IMG/VR virus record: IMGVR_UViG_3300037067_009442
Location: 29,721 to 93,720 of that record
DNA from: a virus
Taxonomy: Duplodnaviria > Heunggongvirae > Uroviricota > Caudoviricetes
Direction: 5' to 3' (one strand)
DNA length: 64,000 nt
The position numbers were made by a program, and so were the translations under genes. Positions 34,397-64,000 of the stretch are shown one piece after another. Position 1 is the first letter of the stretch, and each line of letters begins with the position of its first letter. The notes beneath the pieces are model-generated. The model made no database searches. It saw only the letters and a program-made list of their open reading frames with translations, and was not told the DNA's origin.

Positions 34397-34702
34397 TCAG
34401 ATCACGTCCTCTCGCTCAAATCGGGTAGGTATCGGTGGTTCAGTCGATGGCTTTATCGGCTTACGAGGACTGAGAGTATCGACGATCTGGTAGGTGTAGT
34501 CAACCAGATTGTACTCCTTGAAGTGAGCTCTAAGGTATACAAAAGCGTCAGCTACCTCACTAAGAGTGACCTCCCTATCTCGAAGTAGCACGGCCATGAA
34601 GGACTCTAAAAGCACAGGCATCGGACTTGGGTCATCCGTAATAACTCGAACATCCTTGAGTTTCTTACCTTCAGTGAGGGTAAACTCAAAGTCGAGTCTC
34701 AT
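34397..34702 (-). CDS. PTRFER-tag family protein
   Basis: Ends IPTRFEREDVI. Confidence 0.85.
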   Translation of the reverse strand: MRLDFEFTLTEGKKLKDVRVITDDPSPMPVLLESFMAVLLRDREVTLSEVADAFVYLRAHFKEYNLVDYTYQIVDTLSPRKPIKPSTEPPIPTRFEREDVI

Positions 34703-34984
34703 TCAGATCACGTCCTCTCGCTCAAATCGGGTAGGGTAGGTCCCTGAAGGTAACCTTGCCGCTTCTTCGAGGGTATCGACGATCTGAACGGATACAGCTT
34801 CATTAGGGTAACGACTCTGAAGGCCCTTGAGGATAGTAGTTGAGTTCTTACTATTCAACCTTTTACCTTCAAGGTATTCTCTAATCTGCTTCTCATAGGT
34901 AGGGTTGTTGGTGGTACCAGTTACTCGAACGTCCCTAAGGGATCCATACCTTCCTTGGCGTAGGAGCTCTACGAAGACTGGCAC
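34703..34984 (-). CDS. PTRFER-tag family protein
   Basis: Ends YPTRFEREDVI. Confidence 0.85.
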   Translation of the reverse strand: MPVFVELLRQGRYGSLRDVRVTGTTNNPTYEKQIREYLEGKRLNSKNSTTILKGLQSRYPNEAVSVQIVDTLEEAARLPSGTYPTRFEREDVI

Positions 34985-35410
34985 CTAGACTACATCCTCT
35001 CGCTCGAATCGAGTAGGGTAGGTGCTTAGCAATCCCGTTGATGCAAAGGTTTGCATGATCAGATCTCGATAGGGTAAGTCACTGCCCGTAACGCTTCGAT
35101 GCTCCTCACAGTAGTAGCTGAGGGAGGTAGGAGGTATCTTGACTATCGTGAGTGATAAGGTTGTAACCAAACCTTTTTGAAGGAGGTTGTCTCGCCACTC
35201 AGTGTTCCAGCGTTGAAGGGCGTCTACTTCATCTTGCTCGCTTCTAGACTGAGCAACCCACGTAAGACGAGAGAGGTCTCCACAGGTGACCTTGTACAGA
35301 TTGCAAAGCACGGGTGCAGGTAATGAGGTAGTTGCTAACTTACCGCAGACCCAGCACCGAGGAGCCCACTTCTTGAGCTCTGCATAAGCATCCATGTCAA
35401 AGCGATTCAT
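34985..35410 (-). CDS. PTRFER-tag family protein, zinc-finger-like
   Basis: CWVC...CEEH; ends YPTRFEREDVV. Confidence 0.85.
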   Translation of the reverse strand: MNRFDMDAYAELKKWAPRCWVCGKLATTSLPAPVLCNLYKVTCGDLSRLTWVAQSRSEQDEVDALQRWNTEWRDNLLQKGLVTTLSLTIVKIPPTSLSYYCEEHRSVTGSDLPYRDLIMQTFASTGLLSTYPTRFEREDVV

Positions 35411-36117
35411 ACTACCTCCTCCCTCTCAAACCGAGTCCGGAGTTGGATAGGAGGATCACTAGATGCAACAGGGGTTACCCGCAACGACTCAATGATCTCC
35501 CAGGGATCCCCCATCTGTAGGCACCCGATAGGGTCAGTGATACCCCTACGTTGAAAAATCAGCATCCCAGTTGGGTGTAGGAAACCCTGGAGCCCACACC
35601 TAAATAACCCATAACTCTCACCGCCATCTTCAATACTTCCTTGGGTGGATGAGAACCGATCCCGACCGAGTTTTCGAACAGAGGCGAATTCCTCAGGAGA
35701 TAAGCAGATAGCACGGTAATCAAGCCCCACTAACTTATCGTAGATACCCTCAACTTGTTGATTACTCCTAGGGGGGTTGTTGAACCTAACCACAGAAGGT
35801 GGTTGCATCCTCCCCTGCGGTTCAGGTAGAGCGAATGCCCCCTCGCTCATCATTCGAGCAATCTCTCTCCGACCGCCAGGAGATCGGAATACCTGAAGGT
35901 CCCCTGTTATAGTGTTCCTTGCTGCTACAACACCACAAAACCAGAGAAAGTCATCATCCTCAACGGTATGGCACTGCTCGCAATAGAACCCAATCCTCCC
36001 CATGTGGTACCCACTACCGGCACCAGCACCCTCATCAAGCAGGATCGTATGACCTGTTGCGATAGCATGGTCATTGATTGCCAGAAGCATCTGACTAACG
36101 TTTCGGAACTCCAACAT
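35407..36117 (-). CDS. PTRFER-tag family protein
   Basis: Ends LRTRFEREEVV; start moved to ATG 36117 to avoid overlap; N-domain shared with 40169-40513. Confidence 0.8.
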   Translation of the reverse strand: MLEFRNVSQMLLAINDHAIATGHTILLDEGAGAGSGYHMGRIGFYCEQCHTVEDDDFLWFCGVVAARNTITGDLQVFRSPGGRREIARMMSEGAFALPEPQGRMQPPSVVRFNNPPRSNQQVEGIYDKLVGLDYRAICLSPEEFASVRKLGRDRFSSTQGSIEDGGESYGLFRCGLQGFLHPTGMLIFQRRGITDPIGCLQMGDPWEIIESLRVTPVASSDPPIQLRTRFEREEVV

Positions 36118-36119
36118 GA

Positions 36120-36623
36120 TTAGACGACGTCCTCTCGCTCGAATCGAGTAGGCCGAATAATCTCGGTACTTAGGCTCGAGTTTGGCAAGTAAGGTAACCC
36201 TCTCATTTGGCACTCAATTGAAGTCAGTAGTTTTATCTCACCTGGAGTACCACTAGGGTACTTAAATCGAGGAGTTAACAGTTGAGGTGCGAGCAGTAGA
36301 CTCACCTTCAAAGTAGACTCACTTTCGAGCCGAGGGGTTCCCCGGATCACTCCGTGAAGTATCCAAGTAGGCTCCCGATTAGTCAACCTCTTCATTCGAT
36401 GGTAAAGCCGTAGGTACAGAGGGGCCCTAGGCTCAAGTGGGTCGTCACTCAAACAGAAAGTTGAAGGGCATACCCAGGAACGGAGGGATGTCTCATCAGT
36501 GATATCTATCCCGTTCGAGTGGAAGTATAGGGTTCGAGTACAGTCCGGAAGCCTACGGAAGAAGGGTAGGCAGTCTAGGTCAGTCTGCCACCAAGTGACT
36601 GGACATGGACTGTACAGTACCAT
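36120..36623 (-). CDS. PTRFER-tag family protein (SPxPVTWW subfamily)
   Basis: SPCPVTWW; ends RPTRFEREDVV. Confidence 0.85.
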   Translation of the reverse strand: MVLYSPCPVTWWQTDLDCLPFFRRLPDCTRTLYFHSNGIDITDETSLRSWVCPSTFCLSDDPLEPRAPLYLRLYHRMKRLTNREPTWILHGVIRGTPRLESESTLKVSLLLAPQLLTPRFKYPSGTPGEIKLLTSIECQMRGLPYLPNSSLSTEIIRPTRFEREDVV

Positions 36624-37171
36624 CAGATGACGTCCTCTCGCTCGAATCGAGTAGACCGATGGATCTCAGGCTCAGGTTCCAAGGGGATTGGCCATACCGG
36701 TAAATTAAGGTTCAGGCACTCCTCAGTGGAAAGAAGTGAACCCTCGGTAGGGTAGTAGAACTTAGTCGATAGGAGGATCGGTGCTAGGAGAAGACCCACC
36801 TTTACTACACGGAGATCTCTAGTCAATGATGGGTACGGTACTCCAATTACCCCGTGCATCACCCAAGATGGGTGATGCTTAGACATCATCAACATCCGAC
36901 GGTAAAGTTTAATGCCTATCCCTCTTGTCAAGGTCAACTCAAAAAGACTAGGGCTTACGTCTAGGATCCCGGAGTACTCATAGAGCTCGTTATAGCCATC
37001 AGTTGTGACCTCCTGAGCTACTTGTACCCAACTAGAAGGGCGATGACTACACAGAGGAATATCTCTAACCCTCAGAGTCAAGACGCTTATGTCCCTTGGC
37101 TTAAAGAAACTAGGTACTTGAGCGGGCTTCAGCTGCCACCAAGTTACCGGGCAAGGGCTGCTTAGAGTCAT
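36623..37171 (-). CDS. PTRFER-tag family protein (SPxPVTWW subfamily)
   Basis: Ends RSTRFEREDVI. Confidence 0.85.
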   Translation of the reverse strand: MTLSSPCPVTWWQLKPAQVPSFFKPRDISVLTLRVRDIPLCSHRPSSWVQVAQEVTTDGYNELYEYSGILDVSPSLFELTLTRGIGIKLYRRMLMMSKHHPSWVMHGVIGVPYPSLTRDLRVVKVGLLLAPILLSTKFYYPTEGSLLSTEECLNLNLPVWPIPLEPEPEIHRSTRFEREDVI

Positions 37172-37647
37172 CAGATGACGTCCTCTCGCTCGAACCGAGT
37201 AGGGATTGTCAACCAGTAAGGGAGGTTAACTCTGGCGCACTCCCCATTGGAGAGCCTCTCTATCTCCTTAGTCTCCCAAGTGGACTTAGGCTCTAGCACT
37301 AAGTCAAAAGGAGCGTGGAAGAGACTAACCGTTAGTGCCTTAGTTGGGTGAGAGTTGAGCGCCTCTTCCCTGTCTTGCAGTATTCCATGAAGCTTCCAAT
37401 TGGGCCTCATCTCAGTCATGGTTCGGATCCAAGTGACTAAGAGGCTCAGTTCATGAGGGTAGATCCTCAGTAAGGGGATGGGGACATATGTGGCACTGAG
37501 AGGGTTACTAATCCGAAAGGTCCCATCATCACCATCAAATAGATACCCACAGGGAGTCTCTCGTTCCTTAGTGGTGTATGGGCTGTAGTAATAGGGGATC
37601 CTCCACCATGTGACTGGGTATGGACTGAGGAGAGTAGATTCAGTCAT
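37171..37647 (-). CDS. PTRFER-tag family protein (SPxPVTWW subfamily)
   Basis: Ends IPTRFEREDVI. Confidence 0.85.
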   Translation of the reverse strand: MTESTLLSPYPVTWWRIPYYYSPYTTKERETPCGYLFDGDDGTFRISNPLSATYVPIPLLRIYPHELSLLVTWIRTMTEMRPNWKLHGILQDREEALNSHPTKALTVSLFHAPFDLVLEPKSTWETKEIERLSNGECARVNLPYWLTIPTRFEREDVI

Positions 37648-37961
37648 ACGACATCCTCTCGGTCAAACCTCGAGACTCTAGGGGGCTCAGGAAGGGGCTC
37701 AGGTTCTTTTTTCCGCACGTCTATCGTGCTCTTGAACTCAGTACAGAGTGAAGGTATTGATACCCTCCACTCTGTACCAAAGTAGCTTTCCATGAGGTAA
37801 GCTACTACAACCGCGACCTGAAGGGCTATGAGAGGCTCGACCGAATCGATTAGATCGATCAGGTCGTTATAGGTGCCTCCCAGGTGATTAACCCCTGTTA
37901 CGGAATCTACCGTGACATGGTTTTCATCACTAACCCCTAGGATAACCTCAATCATGCCCAA
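37644..37961 (-). CDS. PTRFER-tag family protein
   Basis: Ends RVSRFDREDVV. Confidence 0.8.
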   Translation of the reverse strand: MGMIEVILGVSDENHVTVDSVTGVNHLGGTYNDLIDLIDSVEPLIALQVAVVVAYLMESYFGTEWRVSIPSLCTEFKSTIDVRKKEPEPLPEPPRVSRFDREDVV

Positions 37962-38087
37962 GTACTTTCGAGGTTGGACACCCCTCGTGCGTTACCCATC
38001 GCCGAACTGAATTACGTCGACAAAGAATGTGCAAGGCAAGAAGAGCAGCAACCAAGTACAGCAAGGTAAGGGTTCGAGGTCTGAACA

Positions 38088-38852
38088 CTACTCGGCCTCT
38101 TGTTCTTGAATGTCCATCAAATTGATCAGAAGTTGACCGTAAGGTGTGCTTCGAGGAAGCTTCCGGTCTACATGGATCCTTCTTCGAGTAGCCACTACAG
38201 GCTCCTTCGTCTTTGGATTGAACCCAGGCTTTTGGTAGTCCTCCCAATAGAGCCCGACTCCTCGCCGCTGCCACAAGGGGACTTCATTGAAGTTGATCCC
38301 ACGGACGAACAGCAAGTCATTCTTCTGGGAGAAGCTCTTGCCTTTGAGCTCTTGAGTAGCCTCCGTGGGGCTGTTACCCCACTCTCGAAGCTTCCAATAG
38401 CACCAGCCGTTCAAGCAGCATCGAGCAGCATCCGACTGCCTCCAATAGAAGTAGTCGAGCACCTCCTTCTGAGTAGGGCCAACCCAGACCCGGCTATCAA
38501 AGTGAGCAGCAGAGCCGAGCTCGATGGAGAAGACCGAGCTTGCAATGCCCGCCGAGATAGAGACGATCTTCTCAACCTCTCGCCCGAAGAGATCCGTATC
38601 CTTGGGTAGTAGGATTGAGATCTCGTCGCTCTCTGTGAAGGCATAGATCCCACCCAACTCGACCATTAGAGTCGAAGCAGTCTTGACCATGTACGAGTGA
38701 AACAGAGGGTCAAACGGATGCTCAAAGCCACGAGTGAGCTTTGTGAAGCTCCGACCATCGACTCGAACCACCGGGTAGGCCCCTGGTAGGATCTTCATCG
38801 AGTGGTAGCACTCGAGTTCCCGCATCCGCTCTTCAAGCTTGTCAGTTTTCAC
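38088..38852 (-). CDS. thg1: tRNA(His) guanylyltransferase Thg1-like 3'-5' polymerase
   Basis: VVRVDGRSF, TESDEIS, FDSR, YFYWRQSDA, GINFNEVPLWQRRG. Confidence 0.93.
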   Translation of the reverse strand: MKTDKLEERMRELECYHSMKILPGAYPVVRVDGRSFTKLTRGFEHPFDPLFHSYMVKTASTLMVELGGIYAFTESDEISILLPKDTDLFGREVEKIVSISAGIASSVFSIELGSAAHFDSRVWVGPTQKEVLDYFYWRQSDAARCCLNGWCYWKLREWGNSPTEATQELKGKSFSQKNDLLFVRGINFNEVPLWQRRGVGLYWEDYQKPGFNPKTKEPVVATRRRIHVDRKLPRSTPYGQLLINLMDIQEQEAE

Positions 38853-39180
38853 GAAGGGGCTACCCCTCTCGGGTTGATCACACCAAGGCCTACCATCTCT
38901 GCCTTGTAGATGGACTGAGGGTCCCCTTCTGGGTTGGGTGTCTCGAACTCGAGGAGGTAACTCTCCTCCTCTTTGTCACCTACCTTGCGGAAGGCGGAAT
39001 AACCAACCCAATCATCTCCCTGGGTCGCCTGTAGGACAACGAAACCCTCAATGAGTAACTCTCGAGCCCTCACTTGGGCTCCTTCTACGTTGTTGAACTT
39101 CTCGATGATAGGGTATGCTTGGCTCATAAGCCCTATTACAAGCACGTCCCTACCCTAGTAGTCAAGGAGCTAGTAGTTTA

Positions 39181-39648
39181 CTAACTTGACCGAGATACAG
39201 CTTGAACCGAGAAGGTACCTTCCGGGGTCAGGGTGACCTCGTAGAGCTCGTCATACCCCTCAGACCATGAAGGGTAGACTAGACGCTTGATCGCCCCGAA
39301 GATAGCAACATGGGGCACGCAGGCATGACCCACTCGAGTGGCATTCCTTTTGAGGCAATCATCTACCCGAGAGCGGAAGAAGTAGCCTTTCACAGTGGCA
39401 CCGTACTCCCGAGCTATTAGAATGATCTCTACTCGGCTAGCCACCTCAACGTTAGTGTTGTCGACAACTACCGATTGACCACAGATCAAACCATCCCGGA
39501 TGAGTAACTCCTGCCGCTTCCGCCGGTTCTTGTTGTTCCGGAAATGATCCTTGCTGACTACCCTGTGAGTAGAGGGAAATCGCTGACTACAGAACGTGGT
39601 CTTGCCCGACGCCTGCAGCCCAGAGAGAATTACCACCTCCAGGGTCAT
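39181..39648 (-). CDS. Polynucleotide kinase-like P-loop protein (AAA_33)
   Basis: GLQASGKTT, VSKD, VVVDNTN, CLKRNATR. Confidence 0.85.
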   Translation of the reverse strand: MTLEVVILSGLQASGKTTFCSQRFPSTHRVVSKDHFRNNKNRRKRQELLIRDGLICGQSVVVDNTNVEVASRVEIILIAREYGATVKGYFFRSRVDDCLKRNATRVGHACVPHVAIFGAIKRLVYPSWSEGYDELYEVTLTPEGTFSVQAVSRSS

Positions 39649-39869
39649 ACTAACCCCTCCCGCTCAAATCGAGTAGGAGGTAGCCTCCTGAAGCTATAAC
39701 AGGATTCATAGATTGGAATGGAGGGGTTCATGCTTCGAAAGACTACTGTATCACCACATTTGGTGGACCAACATCCGAAATACCGAGGGTGCCCAAGTTT
39801 ACAGGGCGGAGCCATCCCGGTACCCCTTCTAGTGTCAGTCGGATGGTGGGTGCAGTCGTTACAGCCCAC
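39645..39869 (-). CDS. PTRFER-tag family protein, Cys-rich
   Basis: CNDC; ends PPTRFEREGLV. Confidence 0.8.
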   Translation of the reverse strand: MGCNDCTHHPTDTRRGTGMAPPCKLGHPRYFGCWSTKCGDTVVFRSMNPSIPIYESCYSFRRLPPTRFEREGLV

Positions 39870-40166
39870 CTAGATGACGTCCTCCCGCTCGAAGCGAGTA
39901 GGGGGATCAGATTCGGGACCTGGAGTCTCTACCCTCATACTATCGTCACTTGAGAGGATAGTGTCCCCAATGGTGATAGAGACTACCTCATTCTCATAGT
40001 CTTGGAAGTAGTCAACAAGGTCCTGACGAGTAGAAGAGGTGACTGGTTTCCCAACGAACCTCTGACGGATGTGGAATTCATGAATCTCATCGCTAGGGGT
40101 GCCCCTAACACGAATCCCCCAGATAGTCTTGTTACTCGTCCGGGTAACCACTTCAATGTTGATCAT
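39870..40166 (-). CDS. PTRFER-tag family protein
   Basis: Ends PPTRFEREDVI. Confidence 0.85.
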   Translation of the reverse strand: MINIEVVTRTSNKTIWGIRVRGTPSDEIHEFHIRQRFVGKPVTSSTRQDLVDYFQDYENEVVSITIGDTILSSDDSMRVETPGPESDPPTRFEREDVI

Positions 40167-40168
40167 GA

Positions 40169-40513
40169 CTAGATGACATCCTCCCGCTCGAAGCGAGACA
40201 ACCGAACAATGTACTCAGGAGCTAGTGAGCAAGTACCTAACGTCAACTCTTGAGCTAACGCTACCCTACTTTCAACTGAGATGAACTTCATTCGAACAGG
40301 GTACCTAACAGGGACTCTCCTGACGGCACTTACCAGGCAGAACCAGTGAGGAGTTGTAACCTCCCTCGCTTGACTTTCGAAGGGGTCACATTGAGTACAC
40401 GTGAAGCCAATGTGACCCCAGGTATACCGATCATCCGAGGTAATACGATGTCCTGTCTCCAGAGCATGCTTTTGGATTACATCAAGCATCCGAATAACAT
40501 CAGTGTATTGCAC
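40169..40513 (-). CDS. PTRFER-tag family protein
   Basis: Ends RLSRFEREDVI. Confidence 0.85.
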   Translation of the reverse strand: MQYTDVIRMLDVIQKHALETGHRITSDDRYTWGHIGFTCTQCDPFESQAREVTTPHWFCLVSAVRRVPVRYPVRMKFISVESRVALAQELTLGTCSLAPEYIVRLSRFEREDVI

Positions 40514-41064
40514 CTAGATAACCTCCTCTCTCGAGTTGAAGGTAGACGTTGATCACGGAGTGAGATCCACGCCATCCTTCTCGAGGAGGACGAATAGCCC
40601 ATGGAATCCCCGGTGTAAAGTGGCCTCATCATACCAATCATTAAAGAACTTTTTGAGTTGGTCTTGCGCAGTTGGAAGGTCTGAGATCTGAACTGCAATA
40701 GCCCAAAGGGTGGGACGTACCTTATCCGGGTGGATCACTATTGGACAGTGGAAGTACTCATCCAACTTGAGGACCACTTCTTTTCCGACCTCTCGGAGGT
40801 GACAAGGGAGCTTCAAGAGTTCACTGTCCAAGTCGAGAGGAGGGTAGACCCATTCACCGTTGATGGAGAGATCTGTGTAGTAGAATGGCTGCCCACAGGC
40901 GACGCAATTATCATAGCGAGCCAACCGCAGGCTAATCGACGTTCGATGGATCAGGAGCAACCCATCAGAGCAAGAAGGACACTTGGACTTATACGGGCTC
41001 TCGTCTACTCTACTCATAGAGGCATGAGAGATTCGAATTGGGTCAGGCTCTTTAGTCGGATCAG

Positions 41065-41562
41065 TCATAGGACATCCTCTCGTTCAAAGCGAGTAGGTCG
41101 ATGAATTTCAGGTGGCGGTGGGGTCCAATTCCAGTATGGGAGGTGAAAGCCCCGGCACTCCTCAACAGTGAACTCTTCCGCTACCACCTCACGTCCAAAC
41201 GAAGAGAATCGAGGTTCGAGTTTCTTTGGGTTGAGCATTAAGCCCCACGTTATGGAGTAGGACTCTGGCCCTGTAATTGAATCGGATACACTGACTTCCT
41301 CAATTACCCCATGAAAGTGACCAGTCTTGACTTCGGCAAGTTCTAGTAGATCTTGCATTTGCTTACGGATTCTGGCCGTTAGAGAGAGTCCAAGGTACCC
41401 GGCATCGTCACTTGTCATAGAGAAAATTTGGATTACATAGTACCGAGGGTTGAGGGGTACTGGGTGGTCTTGGATGAGGATCGATTCCACGAAGCGAGGT
41501 GTAGTAGTTAATCCCACCTTCCACCAAGTGACCGGAATAGGGCTTTGGTAGGTCTCGATCAC
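41065..41562 (-). CDS. PTRFER-tag family protein (SPxPVTWW subfamily)
   Basis: SPIPVTWW; ends RPTRFEREDVL. Confidence 0.85.
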   Translation of the reverse strand: MIETYQSPIPVTWWKVGLTTTPRFVESILIQDHPVPLNPRYYVIQIFSMTSDDAGYLGLSLTARIRKQMQDLLELAEVKTGHFHGVIEEVSVSDSITGPESYSITWGLMLNPKKLEPRFSSFGREVVAEEFTVEECRGFHLPYWNWTPPPPEIHRPTRFEREDVL

Positions 41563-53854: not shown

Positions 53855-54547
53855 ATGGATCACAACCTAAGGTATGATGCTGACCAAGCCCAACAGGACT
53901 ACAGCGACTGCGTCAAGGGCTACCTCTATCAACTAGATAGGGTGCTAGGTCACATCAAAGAGTCAGTTAGCGCTGGGATCTACCCAGTGCCCTTGAGAAT
54001 GGGCTACGCTCTTCACCCAAATACCCTAGCAGCCCTAACGGATAAGGGATTTGTAGTCGAGCTTGATAGCCATGAAAACTACCTAATCAGCTGGGTAAAT
54101 CACCTTGAGTTGGAGTCGTCAACCAAGGTGGTAGATGCCTCCGGATTTACTCGATGGATCAACACCTCAGGGAAGCTACATCGAGTAGACGGCCCCGCCT
54201 TCGAGGCTGACCTTGGTTACAAGGAGTGGAGGGTAGATGGAAAGCTACATCGAGTAGACGGTCCGGCTCGGGACTACGGGAATGGTACCACAGAGTGGTA
54301 CCTAGAAGACCAACTACATCGAGTAGACGGTCCGGCTATCACCTATACCAATGGGTCTACAGAGTGGTTCCTCAATGGGGAACGCCATCGAGTAGGAGGC
54401 CCTGCCCGCGAGAGTACCGATGGGTCTACAGAGTGGTTCCTCAATGGGGAACGCCATCGAGTAGGAGGCCCTGCCCTTGAATGGCCTAACGGTCATAAGC
54501 AGTGGTGGGAGAACGGAACCTTCCTAAGGAGCATCGGCCCCCTATGA
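53855..54547 (+). CDS. Protein with LHRVDGPA (MORN-variant-like) 23-aa repeats
   Basis: Five xHRVxGPA units (69-bp repeats, about 54170-54520); ATG 53855 follows TGGTGTA. Confidence 0.8.
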   Translation: MDHNLRYDADQAQQDYSDCVKGYLYQLDRVLGHIKESVSAGIYPVPLRMGYALHPNTLAALTDKGFVVELDSHENYLISWVNHLELESSTKVVDASGFTRWINTSGKLHRVDGPAFEADLGYKEWRVDGKLHRVDGPARDYGNGTTEWYLEDQLHRVDGPAITYTNGSTEWFLNGERHRVGGPARESTDGSTEWFLNGERHRVGGPALEWPNGHKQWWENGTFLRSIGPL

Positions 54548-55769: not shown

Positions 55770-56294
55770 TCATGAGGGGTTCTCCTTGAAGGTTGGCACC
55801 GGGATCTCCTTCGAAGAGGCTTCAATACCGTCCCCAAACTCCGGGTTGGCCACGTACTGAGACAGTTCTCGAATGTTCGATTCCAGTAGTGCTCGGTCAA
55901 ACACCTCAGTACCATCACAATGGAGCAGCACGTCAGTGACCAAGCAGATGAAGTGCTCCGCCGCTATAGGAGTGATCTCTGAGTGGTCCAGCAGCGTCCT
56001 GATGGGCTTCACCATCGACTTGAAGAGCTTGGCTCGATTCTCGGCCGTATCCAAGTAGCTCTTCATCAGTTGCCGACTCAATCGGATCCTCGAGGGGAGT
56101 AGACCCGTCAGATCTTCAACTGTCGGAGGACCGTCGGCTCTCCGATCCGCTTCCTGCTGAACTATCTCGCTCAGTCCATCCAGGAAAGGCTTGGTGAGCG
56201 GGTGATGCCCATTCTCATCCAAGGCCTCTTGAGTCTCTTTTTGAAGAGCAAGTACGTCTGAGACTGACTTCGTGAGAGAGTTTGATTCCGGCAT
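55770..56294 (-). CDS. Hypothetical protein; a degraded paralog lies at 63532-64000
   Basis: Preceded by CGGTGTA; C-terminus DRALLESNIRELSQYVANPEF...KEIPVPTF. Confidence 0.75.
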   Translation of the reverse strand: MPESNSLTKSVSDVLALQKETQEALDENGHHPLTKPFLDGLSEIVQQEADRRADGPPTVEDLTGLLPSRIRLSRQLMKSYLDTAENRAKLFKSMVKPIRTLLDHSEITPIAAEHFICLVTDVLLHCDGTEVFDRALLESNIRELSQYVANPEFGDGIEASSKEIPVPTFKENPS

Positions 56295-56328: not shown

Positions 56329-57849
56329 CCCTGGATGATGAAGCCTACCAGATGGCTTTGCTACAAGAAACTAAGGGCAAAAGACGGCGAGCTCTGGATG
56401 ATGAAGCCTACCAGATGGCTTTGCTACTCGACACCATCATTGTCGCTTCATGGACGTCTCTGGATGATGAAGCCTACCAGATGGCTTTGCTACTCGTCCG
56501 AGGTATAACAGTCCACTAGGACTAGACCCTTCTCTGGATCACGAAGCCTTCCAGAAGGCTTTGCTACAAAAGTTGACCTTGCAATCTACACTGTTCCTGC
56601 ACACTCTGGGATACGAAGCCTTCCAGAAGGCCTTGCTACTATCCGTCGACAAATTAACTCAAATCAAGGCATTTGCCCTCTGGATGACGAAGCCTACCAG
56701 ATGGCTTTGCTACATGGTCACTGAACGTCGAAGGGTTGTTGTGACGCACTCTGGGATACGAAGCCTACCAGATGGCTTTACTACTTGGACTATCTTGGTC
56801 TCCAGATCGAGCCTTAGCCCTCTGGGATACGAAGCCTACCAGATGGCTTTGCTACGAAAGATACCCCATGACCAATACATTGACCGACAGCTCTGGATCA
56901 CGAAGCCTACCAGATGGCTTTGCTACCGACCTAATCAAGCGCTTCGATAACCTGCTCCCTCTGGATGATGAAGCCTACCAGATGGCTTTGCTACGTCGTC
57001 GTGTCGCCCGACACGAGAGCCCTGTACATCTCTGGAATACGAAGCCTACCAGATGGCTTTGCTACGCCAGGAGGTCCGTAGTCGTCGAGTTAGATTTTGC
57101 CTCTGGAATACGAAGCCTACCAGACGGCTTTGCTACCCGGCCCCGTCAACACGGTAGTGAGCGGCGACAGTCTCTGGAATACGAAGCCTACCAGACGGCT
57201 TTGCTACCTCGAGGCTGGAGCTTAACGGAGTCGATGATTCCCCTCTGGGATACGAAGCCTACCAGATGGCTTTGCTACACGAACAATCAAACCGAAGTAG
57301 TCGTCTCTCTGGAATACAAAGCCTACCAGATGGCCTTGATACTCGACGCCATCATTGTCGCTTCATGGACGTCTCTGGAATACGAAGCCTACCAGATGGC
57401 TTTGCTACCGCGAGGTCGAGCCTAACGTTCGCTCAGGTTGTCCCACTCTGGAATACGAAGCCTACCAGATGGCTTTGCTACGGGGGGGAACCCCGAGAAA
57501 ACAAGGAGAAGAAGCAATCTCTGGATCACGAAGCCTACCAGATGGCTTTGCTACTGCACCTCCAAGCCCACCTGGACCAACCCGATTCGAGCGCTCTGGA
57601 ATACGAAGCCTACCAGACGGCTTTGCTACCGCTCCAACCACGCAGGGATGGGCTGGGCTCCCGATCTCTCTGGATCACGAAGCCTACCAGATGGCTTTGC
57701 TACGTTGTGGGTGGTGAGCAAGAGGGTACCGCCGAGGAGTGCTCTGGATCACGAAGCCTACCAGATGGCTTTGCTACGGACTATGGAATCCACGAGCGAT
57801 GGATCGGCGTCCACTCTGGATGACGAAGCCTACCAGATGGCTTTGCTAC
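56329..57849 (-). CRISPR. CRISPR array, 22 repeats of 36 nt and 21 spacers of 27-39 nt
   Basis: Plus-strand repeat CTCTGG(ATGATG/ATCACG/AATACG/GATACG/ATGACG)AAGCCTACCAGATGGCTTTGCTAC with an AAGCC/GGCTT hairpin. Minus orientation is inferred from the adjacent cas gene and the GT-start of the reverse complement (GTAGCAAAGCC...CCAGAG). Confidence 0.97.
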
Positions 57850-57869
57850 TTGGACTGTCAAACATCAGT

Positions 57870-57941
57870 GAGTGCCCTTACTTGAAGGGCACTCTGCGAG
57901 AGGTGGACTACTCCTATCAGATCGCATAGGAGTAGTCCACC
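57870..57941. other. Two perfect hairpins between cas12m and the array (10-bp and 16-bp stems)
   Basis: GAGTGCCCTT-acttg-AAGGGCACTC (57870-57894) and GGTGGACTACTCCTAT-cagatcgc-ATAGGAGTAGTCCACC (57902-57941). Confidence 0.85.
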
Positions 57942-57948
57942 GGTCAAC

Positions 57949-59919
57949 TCACGAAGCTTGCATTAACTCAAGAGGTTCGTGAGTGCGAGCGGGTACCGGG
58001 TTTGAGGCTCCACTGGACCGCTCGAACTCCTGAAGGAGGTTCATGCAGTTGTTCCAGTCCTGATCAACTTCCTTCCCCGTAGTAGGACACAAGTGAACAT
58101 AATCTCCCTTGGTATCCCACCCATGGTCTTGCCCACAGTGGTTGCAGGTGATGGTCTTCTTCGCAGCAGGTAGAACTTCAATGCGGTGCTTGCCAACCTT
58201 CTCGATGATGACAGACCGTAACTCGCCCGGAGAAGCCTCCTTCGAAGCTCTCAACTCCTCTGAACTGAAACCCTCCTCACCAACATCAGGTCGACGTGTC
58301 AATTGAGCAAGACTCATGTCATCAATGATGACCACATTGTACCGGGCAGAGATAGACTTGGCGACACTACGGTACAGGTCCTTCCGCTGGTTCTGACACT
58401 TGTCCCGTAGGTTGCTGAGGTACTCTGTAAGGTGCTTGTCCTTCTTCCGCCAAATCTCGAGGTACCAAGCTAGCTTAGTGATGTAGTTGGCTCCTGGAGT
58501 AAACGAAGTGATCACCTCATAGGACGGAAGAGGACCATGAGTTGAAGTAGCCTTTCGATAGGACTGCCACAGGGACTCCGCCACCCCCCGACCAATGACC
58601 TCATCACGAAGCCGTAAGGCAATCATCGCCAACCGAGTATGACTCCGCCATTGGGCAATCGTGGTGGTCATCTCTTGGAGCCACTCAGGGACCTCCTGGG
58701 ACTCTTTCAGGAACCGAACAAGCTCTCCACGAGCTAGGTCGAAGTGCTCGTCACAGAACCCCTGTAGCCTCCCCACGAGGGCGAAGGCCCCTTTGATCTT
58801 CTGAGGTAGATGGACGATCTCCTCATGCCCCTTGGTATCGACCAAGTAGGCTACCCGAACGTCCCCCGAAGGAAGAGAACGCCATCCGAAGTTGATTGCA
58901 CACCTGCCCGTAGTAGGGAGCATCGGACTTCCCTGACTCGGATCCTTTGACATCCTTAGCAAGTCCCGCTTGCTCGGTTGAAGGACATCAAACTCAGGAG
59001 AGTCAATGCAAATCTTCAACTCGTACTCTGCCTTCAACCCCAGCTTGGTGACCTTGAGGTACACCTCCCGGATAGATCCAACCGAAGGTAGAGGACGGTC
59101 AAGCTTGATTGGAAGGTCAAGCCAGATAGGCTGACGACCCTCAGTCCCAATCCGAAGGTGAGCTACCGTGTAGGCATGCTCCCATCCACTGCGAGTATTC
59201 CAAGTGTTGTCGGGTAAGGGATCGATCTTGAAGTGAGTGTCCCCAAGGTAGACCTTCGAAAGGTCAAGCCCCCCTTGAATCTGACCCCCAAGGCACCCCT
59301 CACCCTTGAACTTCTTGAACCGAGGATCCAACTTGGCGGTCTTGCTTGCCTGCTGAACCGCTCGCTCAATCCGCAAGTAGGTCGTCCAATAGACCCCACT
59401 TGAGGCCCGAGCTGCCTTGCAACGCTCAAGGTCAACCGCATCAAGCTGGATGCAGGCAAGAGAGAAGTCCCGCTGAACCGACTGCGGAAGAACCTCAAGC
59501 TCCTCTTGAGTAAGTGGTCGCTGTGCCGGTGGATCAGACTTCGAATCCTCCCGAGGACAGGACATCGGCTTGGCTATCGTCCGCTCAGCCTTAACCGAAG
59601 CATTCACCACCTTACGCTCAGCCTTGAGAACCTTGAGCTGAGCTACTAAGGGATCGTTCTTCACCTTGGTCCGAGCTTTCGCATTCTCCTTCTTCTTCTG
59701 ATCCTCAAGCTCATCAATCTGGGCATTGAGCTCAGCTTGTCGAACCTCAAGGGCCGCCAAGGTAGGGAAGGTCTGGGTTCGTAGGGTTCGATACTCCCCC
59801 CGTCGCTGGTTCTCCAACTCAATGAGTCGGTTGTAGTAGGCGTGAGCCAGCCTCAGTTGACCAAAGGCATGCTCAGGGAGAGTACTCAGGTGTACATGAT
59901 AACTGTATATCTTGGGCAT
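57949..59919 (-). CDS. cas12m: Type V-M (V-U1) Cas12m-like CRISPR effector with non-canonical, probably DNase-inactive RuvC
   Basis: 656 aa next to a CRISPR array. Motifs I recall from Cas12m: QLRLAH, long coiled coil, GVYWTTY, RFKKFKGEG, LRIGTEGRQPIWLDLPI, AINFGWRS (RuvC-I, D to N), QWRS, RKDLYR, VIIDDMSL (RuvC-II, E to D), ASPGELR, CNHC zinc ribbon, DQD (RuvC-III). Confidence 0.85.
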   Translation of the reverse strand: MPKIYSYHVHLSTLPEHAFGQLRLAHAYYNRLIELENQRRGEYRTLRTQTFPTLAALEVRQAELNAQIDELEDQKKKENAKARTKVKNDPLVAQLKVLKAERKVVNASVKAERTIAKPMSCPREDSKSDPPAQRPLTQEELEVLPQSVQRDFSLACIQLDAVDLERCKAARASSGVYWTTYLRIERAVQQASKTAKLDPRFKKFKGEGCLGGQIQGGLDLSKVYLGDTHFKIDPLPDNTWNTRSGWEHAYTVAHLRIGTEGRQPIWLDLPIKLDRPLPSVGSIREVYLKVTKLGLKAEYELKICIDSPEFDVLQPSKRDLLRMSKDPSQGSPMLPTTGRCAINFGWRSLPSGDVRVAYLVDTKGHEEIVHLPQKIKGAFALVGRLQGFCDEHFDLARGELVRFLKESQEVPEWLQEMTTTIAQWRSHTRLAMIALRLRDEVIGRGVAESLWQSYRKATSTHGPLPSYEVITSFTPGANYITKLAWYLEIWRKKDKHLTEYLSNLRDKCQNQRKDLYRSVAKSISARYNVVIIDDMSLAQLTRRPDVGEEGFSSEELRASKEASPGELRSVIIEKVGKHRIEVLPAAKKTITCNHCGQDHGWDTKGDYVHLCPTTGKEVDQDWNNCMNLLQEFERSSGASNPVPARTHEPLELMQAS

Positions 59920-60581: not shown

Positions 60582-63545
60582 GTGCCAAAGTCCAAAGTCA
60601 AGGCCATCAATGGAATCAGCTTCAAGACGGGTACTCACCCCCTAAGAGACGTTGGAGACTTCCGTGTTTGGCAACGAGCATGCCTCAAGAAGTTGGACTT
60701 ATCCAGAAGAGCTGTAGTTCAATCTCCTCCTGGATCAGGTAAGTCTACGGTAGCGATGGCTCGTGGAGCCATCCTCTTAGCTCGAAACCCCAAACTAAAG
60801 CACTTAGTTTCTGTCCCACAGAACGTCATTGCAACTTCATTCACGAAAGAGAGCTTAGAGGCCAAGATCCCCGGAGTCTCTTGGCCGAAAGTCGGCAAGC
60901 TTACTTGGAGGGTAGACTCAAACCACATCGAGTGTGAAGCCAAGGTTGACAAGCTCTACCGTTTCATCACGGAAAGAGTTCGTAACCCGAATGAGAGGTT
61001 GATGGTATGTACTCATCAAGCCCTCACCGCAGTCTTCAAGCGCCTCAAAGCAGAGAGTAAGCTTTCAGCTCTCAAGAACCTACTCCTGACCATCGATGAG
61101 ATCCACCACTCGGAGTCCATGATCTTCGAGGAGAACGAGGAGGAAAGGATCCTTGAGAACAAGCTTGGGGAGATTGTCGGTCATTTTTTCAAGCATGACC
61201 TTCGTCTGGACATGTTCACAGCCACTCTGATGCGGTCCAACCTCTCGGACATTATCCCTTCCAAGTATGCAGAAGGGGCAGATTATGCCAAGTACACTCG
61301 GTACATGGATGAGCATCTTGAGGAGTTGAACTTCAAGGGTGGGGTTCACATCAGGTTCCTCATCTGTAGCCCTGAAGAAGCCCTGAAGCACGTTTACAAT
61401 GAAGACGCTTCAATGAAGACGTTCGTCTACCTCCCCCCGGTAGGTTCTTGGATCATGAACCGGTATAGGGACAAGTACTCGATGCTATCTCGGCTTCAGA
61501 GAGTTCTCCGTGCTAAGACCCTCAGAACTGTCGACCTAGTGACTGAGGGAGACCGAGACGCACGAAAAGAGGTGTTCCTCAAGAGCATTGGGGGTGATGA
61601 GCCTGACCTTCTATGGGCACTCAACATGTGCAAAGAAGGGTTTGATTGGCCTAATGCGAGTCGGTCGGTTGTCATTGGGCCACGTGGTTCGATGGTTGAT
61701 ATAATCCAGACACTAGGGCGCCTGTTACGGTCAGGTAAGAAGGATCGGGTTGAGTTCAATATCGTCTTCCCAATAGCAGGAAAGCCCGACCCAGAGCAGG
61801 TCCAAGAGTACCTGAACATCATAATCCAAAGCTTGATAGTCGAGTGGTGCTTCAGTCGCCCTAAGGTGAAGAATAAACGTGAGCAGGAAGTAATTGACCA
61901 CGCCTTCATTGAGAACCCATCCCTGGGTCAGAAGGCACTTCAGGCTTGCATCACTGCTGGCATCAACTCGGAGGGTGATGTAGACGCCGTAAAGGCTATC
62001 AGGAAGGGGTTGGACCGCTTTGACCTGAATAAAATACCTACTGAAGACAAGGACATCATGGCACCTATCCTGAGCCGAATGGTGGCTAGTGGGTTAGGGG
62101 GTCTTGGATCCACCTCAGGTAAGGTTCAACTAGTCAAGAATGTATTCGGTAGGGTTCGCACGTGGGGTGCTTCGTTTGGGTACCAACACCTACGAGAGAT
62201 TAGAGAGAGTCAGAATCGTAAGGGTTGGCTAACCGAGGATCAGATCTGGGAAGTAGCGAAAGCTTGGAAAGAACGTACGGGTAAGTGGCCTTCCTTAGAA
62301 ACTAAAGGTGCAATCCCTGAGCTACCTAGGTCTACCTGGATTGGAGTTAATGCAGCCCTCAGGGGGGGTATTAGAGGGTTACCAAGTGGATCCTCTTTGG
62401 GTGCTCTCCTAGCTTCAAGGGGAGTGCTGAATCATAGTAGTAAAGTGGCCCTGACAGAGGACAAGATCTGGAAAGTAGCAAAAGCTTGGAAAGAACGTAC
62501 GGGTAAGTGGCCTTCCCAGGATACTAAAGGTGAAATCCCTGAATTACCTGGTAATACCTGGATTGGAGTTAATGCAGCCCTCAGGGGGGGTATTAGAGGG
62601 CTACCAGGTGGATCCTCTTTGAGTGTTCTCCTAGCTTCAAGGGGGGTGCTAAATCAAGGTAGTAAAGTGGCCCTAACCGAGGATCAGATCTGGGAAGTAG
62701 CTCAGGCTTGGAAAGAACGTACGGGTAAGTGGCCTACTTTGATCACTAAAGGTGAAATCCCTGAACTACCTGGTAATACTTGGGGAGGAGTTAATGCAGT
62801 CCTCAGATTTGGTCATAGTGGGTTACGAGGTGGATCCTCTTTGGGTGCTCTCCTAGCTTCAAAGGGAGTGCTGAATCGTAGTAGTAGGGTAGCCCTGACA
62901 GAGGACAAGATATGGAAAGTAGCGAAAGCTTGGAAAGAACGTACGGGTAAGTGGCCTACTTTGATCACTAAAGGTGAAATCCCTGAACTACCTGGTAATA
63001 CTTGGATTGGGGTTAATGCAGCCCTCAGTGGGGGTTATCGAGGGCTACCAGGTGGATCCTCTTTGGGTGCTCTCCTAGCTTCAAAGGGAGTGCTGAATCG
63101 TAGTAGTAGGGTAGCCCTGACAGAGGACAAGATATGGAAAGTAGCGAAAGCTTGGGAGAAGCGAACGGGTAAGTGGCCTACCTCGGATACTAAAGGTGAG
63201 ATCCCTGAGCTACCCGGCCCTACTTGGGCCACGCTTAATGCAGCCCTCAGATGGGGTTCTAGAGGGTTTCCAGGTGGATCCTCTTTGAGTGCTCTCCTAG
63301 CTTCAAGAGGTGTGTGGAACCAATGCAGTAAAATTACCCTAACCGAAGATCAAGTCTGGAAAGTAGTGAGAGCTTGGAAGGAGCGAACGGGTAAGTGGCC
63401 TACCTTAGAGACTAAAGGTGAGATTCCTGAATTCATAGGCGCTACTTGGGCCGGGATTAATAAAGCCCTCAGAGACGGTCGTCGAGGGCTCCCAGGTGGG
63501 ATCACACTCTCTGGGCTCAAGGAGAAGCTATCTAAGTGCGAGTGA
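60582..63545 (+). CDS. Superfamily 2 helicase with six C-terminal tandem repeats
   Basis: SPPGSGKS, DEIH, TAT, EGFDWP, QTLGRLLR; then 6 x 74-aa repeats. Confidence 0.88.
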   Translation: MPKSKVKAINGISFKTGTHPLRDVGDFRVWQRACLKKLDLSRRAVVQSPPGSGKSTVAMARGAILLARNPKLKHLVSVPQNVIATSFTKESLEAKIPGVSWPKVGKLTWRVDSNHIECEAKVDKLYRFITERVRNPNERLMVCTHQALTAVFKRLKAESKLSALKNLLLTIDEIHHSESMIFEENEEERILENKLGEIVGHFFKHDLRLDMFTATLMRSNLSDIIPSKYAEGADYAKYTRYMDEHLEELNFKGGVHIRFLICSPEEALKHVYNEDASMKTFVYLPPVGSWIMNRYRDKYSMLSRLQRVLRAKTLRTVDLVTEGDRDARKEVFLKSIGGDEPDLLWALNMCKEGFDWPNASRSVVIGPRGSMVDIIQTLGRLLRSGKKDRVEFNIVFPIAGKPDPEQVQEYLNIIIQSLIVEWCFSRPKVKNKREQEVIDHAFIENPSLGQKALQACITAGINSEGDVDAVKAIRKGLDRFDLNKIPTEDKDIMAPILSRMVASGLGGLGSTSGKVQLVKNVFGRVRTWGASFGYQHLREIRESQNRKGWLTEDQIWEVAKAWKERTGKWPSLETKGAIPELPRSTWIGVNAALRGGIRGLPSGSSLGALLASRGVLNHSSKVALTEDKIWKVAKAWKERTGKWPSQDTKGEIPELPGNTWIGVNAALRGGIRGLPGGSSLSVLLASRGVLNQGSKVALTEDQIWEVAQAWKERTGKWPTLITKGEIPELPGNTWGGVNAVLRFGHSGLRGGSSLGALLASKGVLNRSSRVALTEDKIWKVAKAWKERTGKWPTLITKGEIPELPGNTWIGVNAALSGGYRGLPGGSSLGALLASKGVLNRSSRVALTEDKIWKVAKAWEKRTGKWPTSDTKGEIPELPGPTWATLNAALRWGSRGFPGGSSLSALLASRGVWNQCSKITLTEDQVWKVVRAWKERTGKWPTLETKGEIPEFIGATWAGINKALRDGRRGLPGGITLSGLKEKLSKCE
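62229..63530 (+). repeat. Six tandem 222-bp coding repeats
   Basis: Units start near 62229, 62451, 62673, 62895, 63117 and 63339 (LTEDxIWxVAKAWKERTGKWP...GLPGGSSL). Confidence 0.93.
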
Positions 63546-64000
63546 ACGTCGGAACCGGGATCTCCTTCGAGGTGGCTTCACTACCGTCCCTGAACTCCGG
63601 ATTGGTCACGTACTGGGACAGATCTCGGATGTTCATTCCAATAGCGCCCGGTCAATCCAGCAGCGTCCTGTCTCAGTAAAAATGCTCCAAGGGATTGTCA
63701 CGTCAACGGTTGACGTTAGGCACATCTTTATGCTCTTCCTGGATAGGCTCCATTGACACACAGATGCAACCCTTGAGGTGCCGTAGTCCAGTGACCGTAT
63801 TGACCCAATGAAGAACATCAACCTCCTCCGGACAGCTGATGAGGATCCGAACCTCGTGAGTAGGCTCCACCGGACAGTTGATGAGGATCCGATCATCTTG
63901 AGTAGGTGAGACCTGAATCTCTATCTCCTTGAGGATCGTCTCACTCACCCTGAGGCCTTGATGCCGTATCTCATCAAGCACCCGCACCAAGGCCTCCTGA
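63532..64000 (-). pseudogene. Frameshifted, internally deleted paralog of 55770-56294 (runs off the window end)
   Basis: DRALLE then a 1-nt loss, then NIRDLSQYVTNPEFRDGSEATSKEIPVPTF in another frame; shares AGGACGCTGCTGGA. Confidence 0.6.

Follow-up and report, generated by a model that had tools for sequence, protein, structure and literature searches.

Why does a phage carry, in its own CRISPR array, a spacer encoding the peptide with which 58 of its own open reading frames (ORFs) end? The preliminary description of this locus held that the system targets the signature gene family of its own phage lineage. This proved to be an overstatement: the tag is encoded by one spacer of 21, and in any one genome its guide would reach no more than about one gene. 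The window (the whole stretch of DNA analysed, 64,000 nucleotides) comprises bases 29,721-93,720 of a 228,619-bp virus contig, G000, contained in a groundwater sequencing run. The completeness of this contig is estimated at 45%, which places roughly 55% of the phage genome outside it, and homologues of 133 of the ORFs called mechanically on it occur in G003, a complete 512-kb phage. Since the G000 ORFs align with about half of G003, this contig represents roughly one half of the genome of a jumbo phage. The 45% complete contig yielded no cas1, none of the RNA sequencing runs listed contains the array, and among the source-run pieces listed the sole overlap with the tag spacer is the array itself. 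A 92-nt stretch duplicated at 86% identity flanks the CRISPR locus (55787-55878 and 63543-63634), and 222-nt tandem repeats (62229-63499) and 69-nt repeats (54170-54476) lie nearby.

The effector gene (57949-59919, minus strand) encodes a 656-aa Cas12m-like protein with the RuvC triad N343-D533-D621, the Asn of which (N343) is common to the five closest homologues checked. Its best phmmer match is the Cas12m 23vw (E 1e-45), its profile matches in the PDB are Cas12m chains only, and the top four Foldseek matches are Cas12m structures (E 1e-25 to 6e-20, at a global TM of only ~0.35 and a model pTM of 0.46). Judged by sequence, the locus is of type V-M, combining a Cas12m-like effector, an altered RuvC triad and an adjacent 36-nt V-M-type array. 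Cas12m with an N-D-D triad shows PAM-dependent DNA binding and no cutting (PMC11013384), and GoCas12m blocks transcription. The heteroduplex of MmCas12m2 is 17 bp long (PMC10442227) and the duplex of GoCas12m 18 bp, stable binding needing 17-18 bp. PmCas12m, which has the N-D-D triad, uses a mature guide of ~17 nt, and a single mismatch 12 nt or less from the PAM abolishes its activity in a human-cell reporter (bioRxiv 10.64898/2026.03.26.714355). Close homologues of the effector (63-75%) adjoin similar arrays, among them the sister loci L014 and L015 (72-73% identical), and 44 more distant Cas12m-like genes occur on IMG/VR viral loci (L161-L204), most with arrays. Phage-borne Cas12m is thus common, not rare.

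The array (56329-57849, minus strand) consists of 22 repeats, each 36 nt long, which alternate with 21 spacers. Its first repeat lies 100 nt downstream of cas12m, beyond a leader (57850-57948, minus strand) with two long perfect inverted repeats. That the array is transcribed from the minus strand follows from the position of cas12m upstream on that strand, from the repeat alignment and from the degenerate repeats at the far end of the sister array L014. Over its full length the repeat can be aligned with other Cas12m repeats of 36 nt (ending in AGAG here and GAC there), and because its length and layout are those of other Cas12m repeats, the first guide base is fixed at 57593. The tag spacer (57555-57593, minus strand, 39 nt) is the fourth from the leader, between an upstream repeat (57594-57629, minus strand, 36 nt) that ends in CCAGAG and forms the crRNA scaffold for the tag guide, and a downstream repeat (57519-57554, minus strand, also 36 nt). 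On the plus strand the spacer reads APPSPPGPTRFER. The guide, read from the minus strand, starts with CGCTCGAATCGGGTTGG and is antisense to the 3' end of a gene that codes for the tag; the first 17 nt of the guide coincide exactly with the PTRFER codons.

Leader-proximal spacers are 36-39 nt long and GC-rich (54-68%), and older spacers are mostly 35 nt or shortened. Spacers 56428-56457 and 57343-57372 are duplicates with one difference. The two oldest spacers (56335-56487) recur unchanged on contigs of the landfill run X3, and in three further runs the array repeat is identical and the spacers are new. The spacer next to the tag spacer (57482-57518) looks non-coding, like a start region, with a small hairpin, an AGGAG motif and a terminal AT; it matches 27 of 28 nt of a multicopy intergenic repeat in the myxobacterial MAG G408, the PAM-proximal 10 nt being mismatched.

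The preliminary description was right that this spacer encodes PTRFER, as do 6 of 200,000 shuffled arrays (234 of 200,000 encode [TS]RFER). Its distal 22 nt form an open, Pro-rich, linker-like frame in which four of the seven residues are Pro; the Pro content of tag linkers is 14.7% against 5.7% in the background. This distal part matches no own gene in G000 (best own match 26/39 for the spacer). Given the shuffle rate and the seven Pro-rich residues before the motif, which resemble real tag linkers, the spacer almost certainly derives from the end of a tagged gene. Coincidence, by which unrelated DNA would read PTRFER in some frame, is very improbable: JGI metagenomes do hold 23 matches to PPGPTRFER-compatible DNA (mostly GC-rich DNA, best 28/39), none of which is a tagged gene end, but the motif is too rare among the shuffled arrays and its Pro-rich linker lies on the correct side.

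What, then, is the tag? In G000 the tag closes 58 ORFs and consists of (P)TRFER with EDVI-like or IL-x-E/D-like residues after it; 18 of these ends fall within the window, where a cluster of small ORFs (34397-41562, minus strand) has the (P)TRFER-EDVI form. The tagged genes had been taken for one family, which needs correcting: the proteins are mostly unrelated to one another and have a terminal peptide in common. All synonymous codons occur among the tags, so the tag is conserved as a peptide and not as DNA. Among the relatives, G003 (512 kb, complete) has 60 tags, G001 33, G004 15 and G002 5, and none of these four encodes Cas12m. The sister Cas12m phage (L014:44-20135, a 237-kb contig) has at least eight genes with a drifted form of the tag, SRY-x-R-x-PVI or RYHRPWVI. 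The tag also terminates genes in two or three islands of the deltaproteobacterial MAG CAWEUH01 (G005), with PTRFER-EDVI and -IL tags on small genes at L099:128-1844, L100:9946-10619 and L101:8187-10301; two of the tag-bearing islands adjoin a VapE-like primase-helicase or an integrase. This MAG has 21 MYXO-CTERM matches. As the tag is present in only one of 401 phylum-mates, it belongs to mobile elements and not to the host core, and the islands are possibly satellites sharing or mimicking the jumbo phage tag. From the tag common to the phage and this myxobacterial MAG, I infer that the phage infects myxobacteria. No paper with the PTRFER motif was found in the literature. An undescribed peptide common to jumbo phages and integrated elements of a myxobacterium is a stranger finding than the spacer, but separate from it.

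Within the window, the near-matches of the guide to own tags are exactly as first listed. Two are 15/17 (35001-35017, at the end of ORF 34985-35410, and 36136-36152, at the end of ORF 36120-36623) and one is 14/17 (36639-36655, at the end of ORF 36623-37171), each with 11 perfect bases and a first mismatch at position 12; a fourth is 16/18 with its first mismatch at position 6 (34413-34430, at the end of ORF 34397-34702). All four are on the plus strand, flanked by TCT, and CCTCT does precede every one. The statement that the spacer has no full-length match also holds, across all 228,619 bp of G000. The best self site lies outside the window, at G000:C1:144006-144022 (L005:11006-11022), and is 17/17 with the flank GATC (PAM-side ATC); beyond it the match drops to 9/22, giving 26/39 overall. 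It consists of the last codons of an own 106-aa orphan gene (G000:143724-144044) at the end of a coupled ORF run. No homologues of this gene were found in 5.8 billion proteins, its Atlas matches are unnamed proteins, and none of its local family members ends in APPSPPG. The orphan has an H..H..CxxC-type body common to several tagged proteins, and the site is followed by a hairpin and, 40 nt downstream, by a promoter-like TTGAGA-17-TAGTAT.

The 17/17 site is the only one of the 58 own tags with at least 12 perfect PAM-proximal bases. Four own tags reach 11, 57 of 58 fail within 12 nt of the guide, and the best possible 12-mer covers only five of 58. These counts bear on the proposal that one guide would repress many own tagged genes through 11-nt seeds next to TCT, which I consider very doubtful even though three window sites have 11 perfect bases, TCN is the commonest and an all-pyrimidine flank at the spacer's register (44 of 84 tags, with ATN at 29 and TTN at 3), and C-rich Cas12m PAMs exist. 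Under the PmCas12m mismatch rule the window sites fail because they break at position 6 or 12, and 11 bases fall short of the 17-18 bp duplex, so a family-wide regulon is not supported. Moreover, the guide codons are minority codons and hence not tuned to the family consensus, and the sister arrays have no such spacer. The guide is too specific in sequence for control of the 58 own tagged genes.

Neither L014 nor L015 (two close sisters only) has a TRFER spacer, and there is no tag spacer among 270 mechanically parsed spacers adjoining other viral Cas12m-like genes; the tag guide is therefore not a conserved fixture. A leader-proximal spacer of one sister (L014:12110-12144) reads QPTAKKEPYNP and then T, like a tag linker, and stops just before RFER; no contig matching this candidate second tag-adjacent spacer was found. 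A spacer of the other (L015:4324-4354) is antisense to DNNDYYI, comparable to GDNNDxYIL in proteins of three myxobacterial relatives, and may be aimed at a host gene.

Where did the tag spacer come from? Searched against the contig and viral databases, no spacer of the array yielded a protospacer. Exact matches to the tag spacer were absent at 23 nt from viral contigs, at 22 nt from metagenome contigs and at 20 nt from GTDB genomes. The whole array found no protospacer in GenBank phages, and a degenerate PGPTRFER search of viral contigs found nothing. Against the 401 phylum-mates and against 121 genomes related to the myxobacterial MAG, the array gave chance-level matches only. None of the other 20 spacers matches G000, and none has a self seed longer than 11 nt. 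A match in G455 (E 5e-6, tag spacer plus repeat) was rejected, being gapped and inside a putative recombinase-like coding region. All spacers of the three arrays were also compared with the five tag-bearing phages; this yielded no protospacer and hence no PAM.

The PAM can be approached from the effector and from the tags themselves. Reported Cas12m PAMs (TTN, YTN, YTTS, TTV and CC-type) all have a pyrimidine at -3, and Gln197 of MmCas12m reads T(-3). At the PAM-contact positions the present protein has W178, L182, Q213 and Q215; Q215 is the retained Gln197-equivalent, and W178 and Q213 are retained too. L182 occupies the position of Asn156, as Leu does in 94 of 103 homologues. It was considered as a sign of an altered PAM and rejected, since Leu is the norm in homologues and MsCas12m, which has Leu at this position, has TT-PAM targets. 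With Q215 retained and a purine at -3 in its ATC flank, the 17/17 site is probably not bound by Cas12m, which would amount to self-avoidance. Under neutral uptake the 1-17 register would arise, per 20 spacers, with a frequency of 0.05% for TTN, 0.6% for TCN and 0.5% for ATN. These statistics lean towards a PAM other than TTN, and the flank counts lend some weight to the TCT first proposed. If the PAM is TCN, the natural source would be an EDVI-class tag elsewhere; the best foreign site, in the relative G002, matches 16/17, has 14 perfect bases and is flanked by TCG. If tag carriers were the source of every spacer, one among 20 would cover a whole tag in 7.6% of cases. The exact 1-17 register hints at selection, for a single case seen after the fact.

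The 17/17 site allows a narrower form of self-regulation, in which the guide would act on the 106-aa gene alone and a roadblock would truncate the message before its stop, removing the protein or its tag. I think this unlikely. A non-cutting effector would make self-binding harmless to the genome, and the perfect match stops at 17 nt, which is the length of the MmCas12m2 heteroduplex (PMC10442227) and of the mature PmCas12m guide. The best among 175 tags examined is an own one (p ~0.015 given the spacer codons), the 17-mer alone favours own origin about tenfold, and the register would be ten times as probable under an ATN PAM as under TTN. However, five of 65 foreign PTRFER tags (7.7%) also have a 17-nt twin among the G000 tags, in no other spacer does a self seed exceed 11 nt, and the ATC flank departs from the pyrimidine that Q215 would lead one to expect. 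The distal 9/22 is ordinary, an identity at least as high being reached by 24 of 171 tags, and a recent spacer would not drift into a new linker-like frame. Finally, the next promoter-like -35 box is not overlapped by the site but found 40 nt further downstream. Little credence is likewise due to a selected spacer, whose 17-nt window coincides with the most conserved codons of a lineage-wide tag and with which a relaxed-PAM Cas12m would silence tagged genes in competing phages and host islands and bind the own 17/17 site. In that event the guide would be motif-directed and broad in spectrum; only an effector that leaves DNA uncut would make it tolerable, and tuning of one own tagged protein would be a possible further use.

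A complete protospacer might instead lie in the ~55% of the phage's own genome outside the contig, which would make this true self-targeting. G000 is 45% complete and aligns with about half of its 512-kb relative, and the codons of the spacer fit the phage lineage slightly better than sampled myxobacterial core genes (logL -13.9 to -14.9 vs -16.6, a weak difference). Yet G000 already contains 58 tags and the complete relative 60; CCT ACT is preferred in own tags where the spacer has CCA ACC; and as the other 20 spacers match nothing in G000, this array does not habitually take spacers from its own genome. I regard it as quite improbable.

The explanation I favour, with some reserve, is that the tag spacer was captured from a competing tag-bearing element and serves a known kind of inter-element silencing. 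Because no protospacer was found, I infer this source from the carriers of the tag that lack Cas12m (G001-G004 and the MAG islands). In its favour are also the linker-like distal frame with no counterpart in an own gene, the absence of cas1 from the contig, the 16/17 site in G002 and, weakly, the codon fit to the phage lineage. The preliminary description had offered a related phage with the tag as one origin; an origin in another element stands as the best reading, with a class of possible sources that is wider and includes the islands of the MAG. Against a competitor speak the low neutral frequency of the 1-17 register, the own 17/17 match with its roughly tenfold preference for own origin, the half of the phage genome outside the contig, and the Gly directly before the tag Pro in the spacer, which occurs in none of 116 tags. 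Under capture from a competitor, host adaptation proteins (Cas1-Cas2) acting in trans would have cut the spacer from the 3' end of a foreign tagged gene, belonging to a co-infecting sister jumbo phage or to an integrated island or satellite with the same tag in the same host. Cas12m would then process the array and load a guide of ~17-20 nt, as is known for the family, bind the matching 3' end next to a presumably pyrimidine-rich PAM and pair with the coding strand without cutting. The outcome would be silencing of the target gene or a message that ends ahead of its tag and stop. Own genes would escape through the synonymous mismatches seen in their tags or, perhaps, a missing PAM; matches in the own genome would be a by-product of the common peptide, most of them failing in the seed. 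The guide may have been retained for its breadth: with 30-60 copies of the tag in each relative, it would cross-react with more competitors than a random spacer.

Capture from a competitor suggests that tag-bearing phages and integrated elements meet and compete in one cell. The locus also supplies a natural test set for Cas12m with a single guide: the 17/17 site flanked by ATC, the one of 16/17 flanked by TCG, and several TCT-flanked sites of 11 nt. Were the self site bound, a non-cutting Cas12 would let a phage keep, or use, a self-matching guide.

How does this system compare with those already known? The best sequence and fold matches of its effector are the V-M proteins MmCas12m2, GoCas12m and PmCas12m (PMC10442227, PMC11013384, bioRxiv 10.64898/2026.03.26.714355). 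It has the non-canonical N-D-D triad of Pp and PmCas12m and a 36-nt repeat in the same layout as known V-M systems, whose members need no tracrRNA-like partner. Unlike the solved V-M members, it belongs to a phage clade at 20-30% identity, has no cas1 in the contig and has a repeat ending in GAG, not GAC. A regulatory guide of the CreA/CreR kind would, like the tag guide, match own DNA in part and have a non-cutting outcome, which is predicted here (PMC8501985; bioRxiv 10.1101/2023.03.10.532045). The tag guide differs in being a normal spacer with intact repeats in a 21-spacer array and not a degenerate stand-alone repeat unit, in matching a 3' coding end and not a promoter, and in not being conserved in sisters; with the matches in 3' coding ends and the pair absent from the two close sisters, this comparison was rejected. 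As a large-phage array with no adaptation module, the locus resembles the phage-encoded arrays and mini-arrays directed at related viruses, and other phages are the targets of phage arrays that lack adaptation genes (PMC7162821). Like SPV1/SPV2 and ICP1 against PLE (reviewed in PMC11656645), it has a spacer aimed at sequence common to relatives or possibly to a satellite-like island. It differs from phage arrays and mini-arrays in having its own non-cutting effector and, as presumed target, a repeated peptide-tag sequence that its carrier also contains 58 times. V-M systems carried by mobile elements have a role in competition (PMC11656645), and inter-plasmid competition by types IV-A and V-M parallels the cleavage-free silencing and in-trans spacers predicted here (PMC11656645; bioRxiv 10.1101/2023.06.23.546257); unlike that competition, the present case would be fought by a single-protein effector on a jumbo phage. 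By analogy, then, the system probably works in the manner of the inter-element silencing already known from phage arrays and from V-M or IV-A systems on plasmids, and a spacer of competition would make it a further case of phage-borne silencing CRISPR, linked here to a peptide tag.
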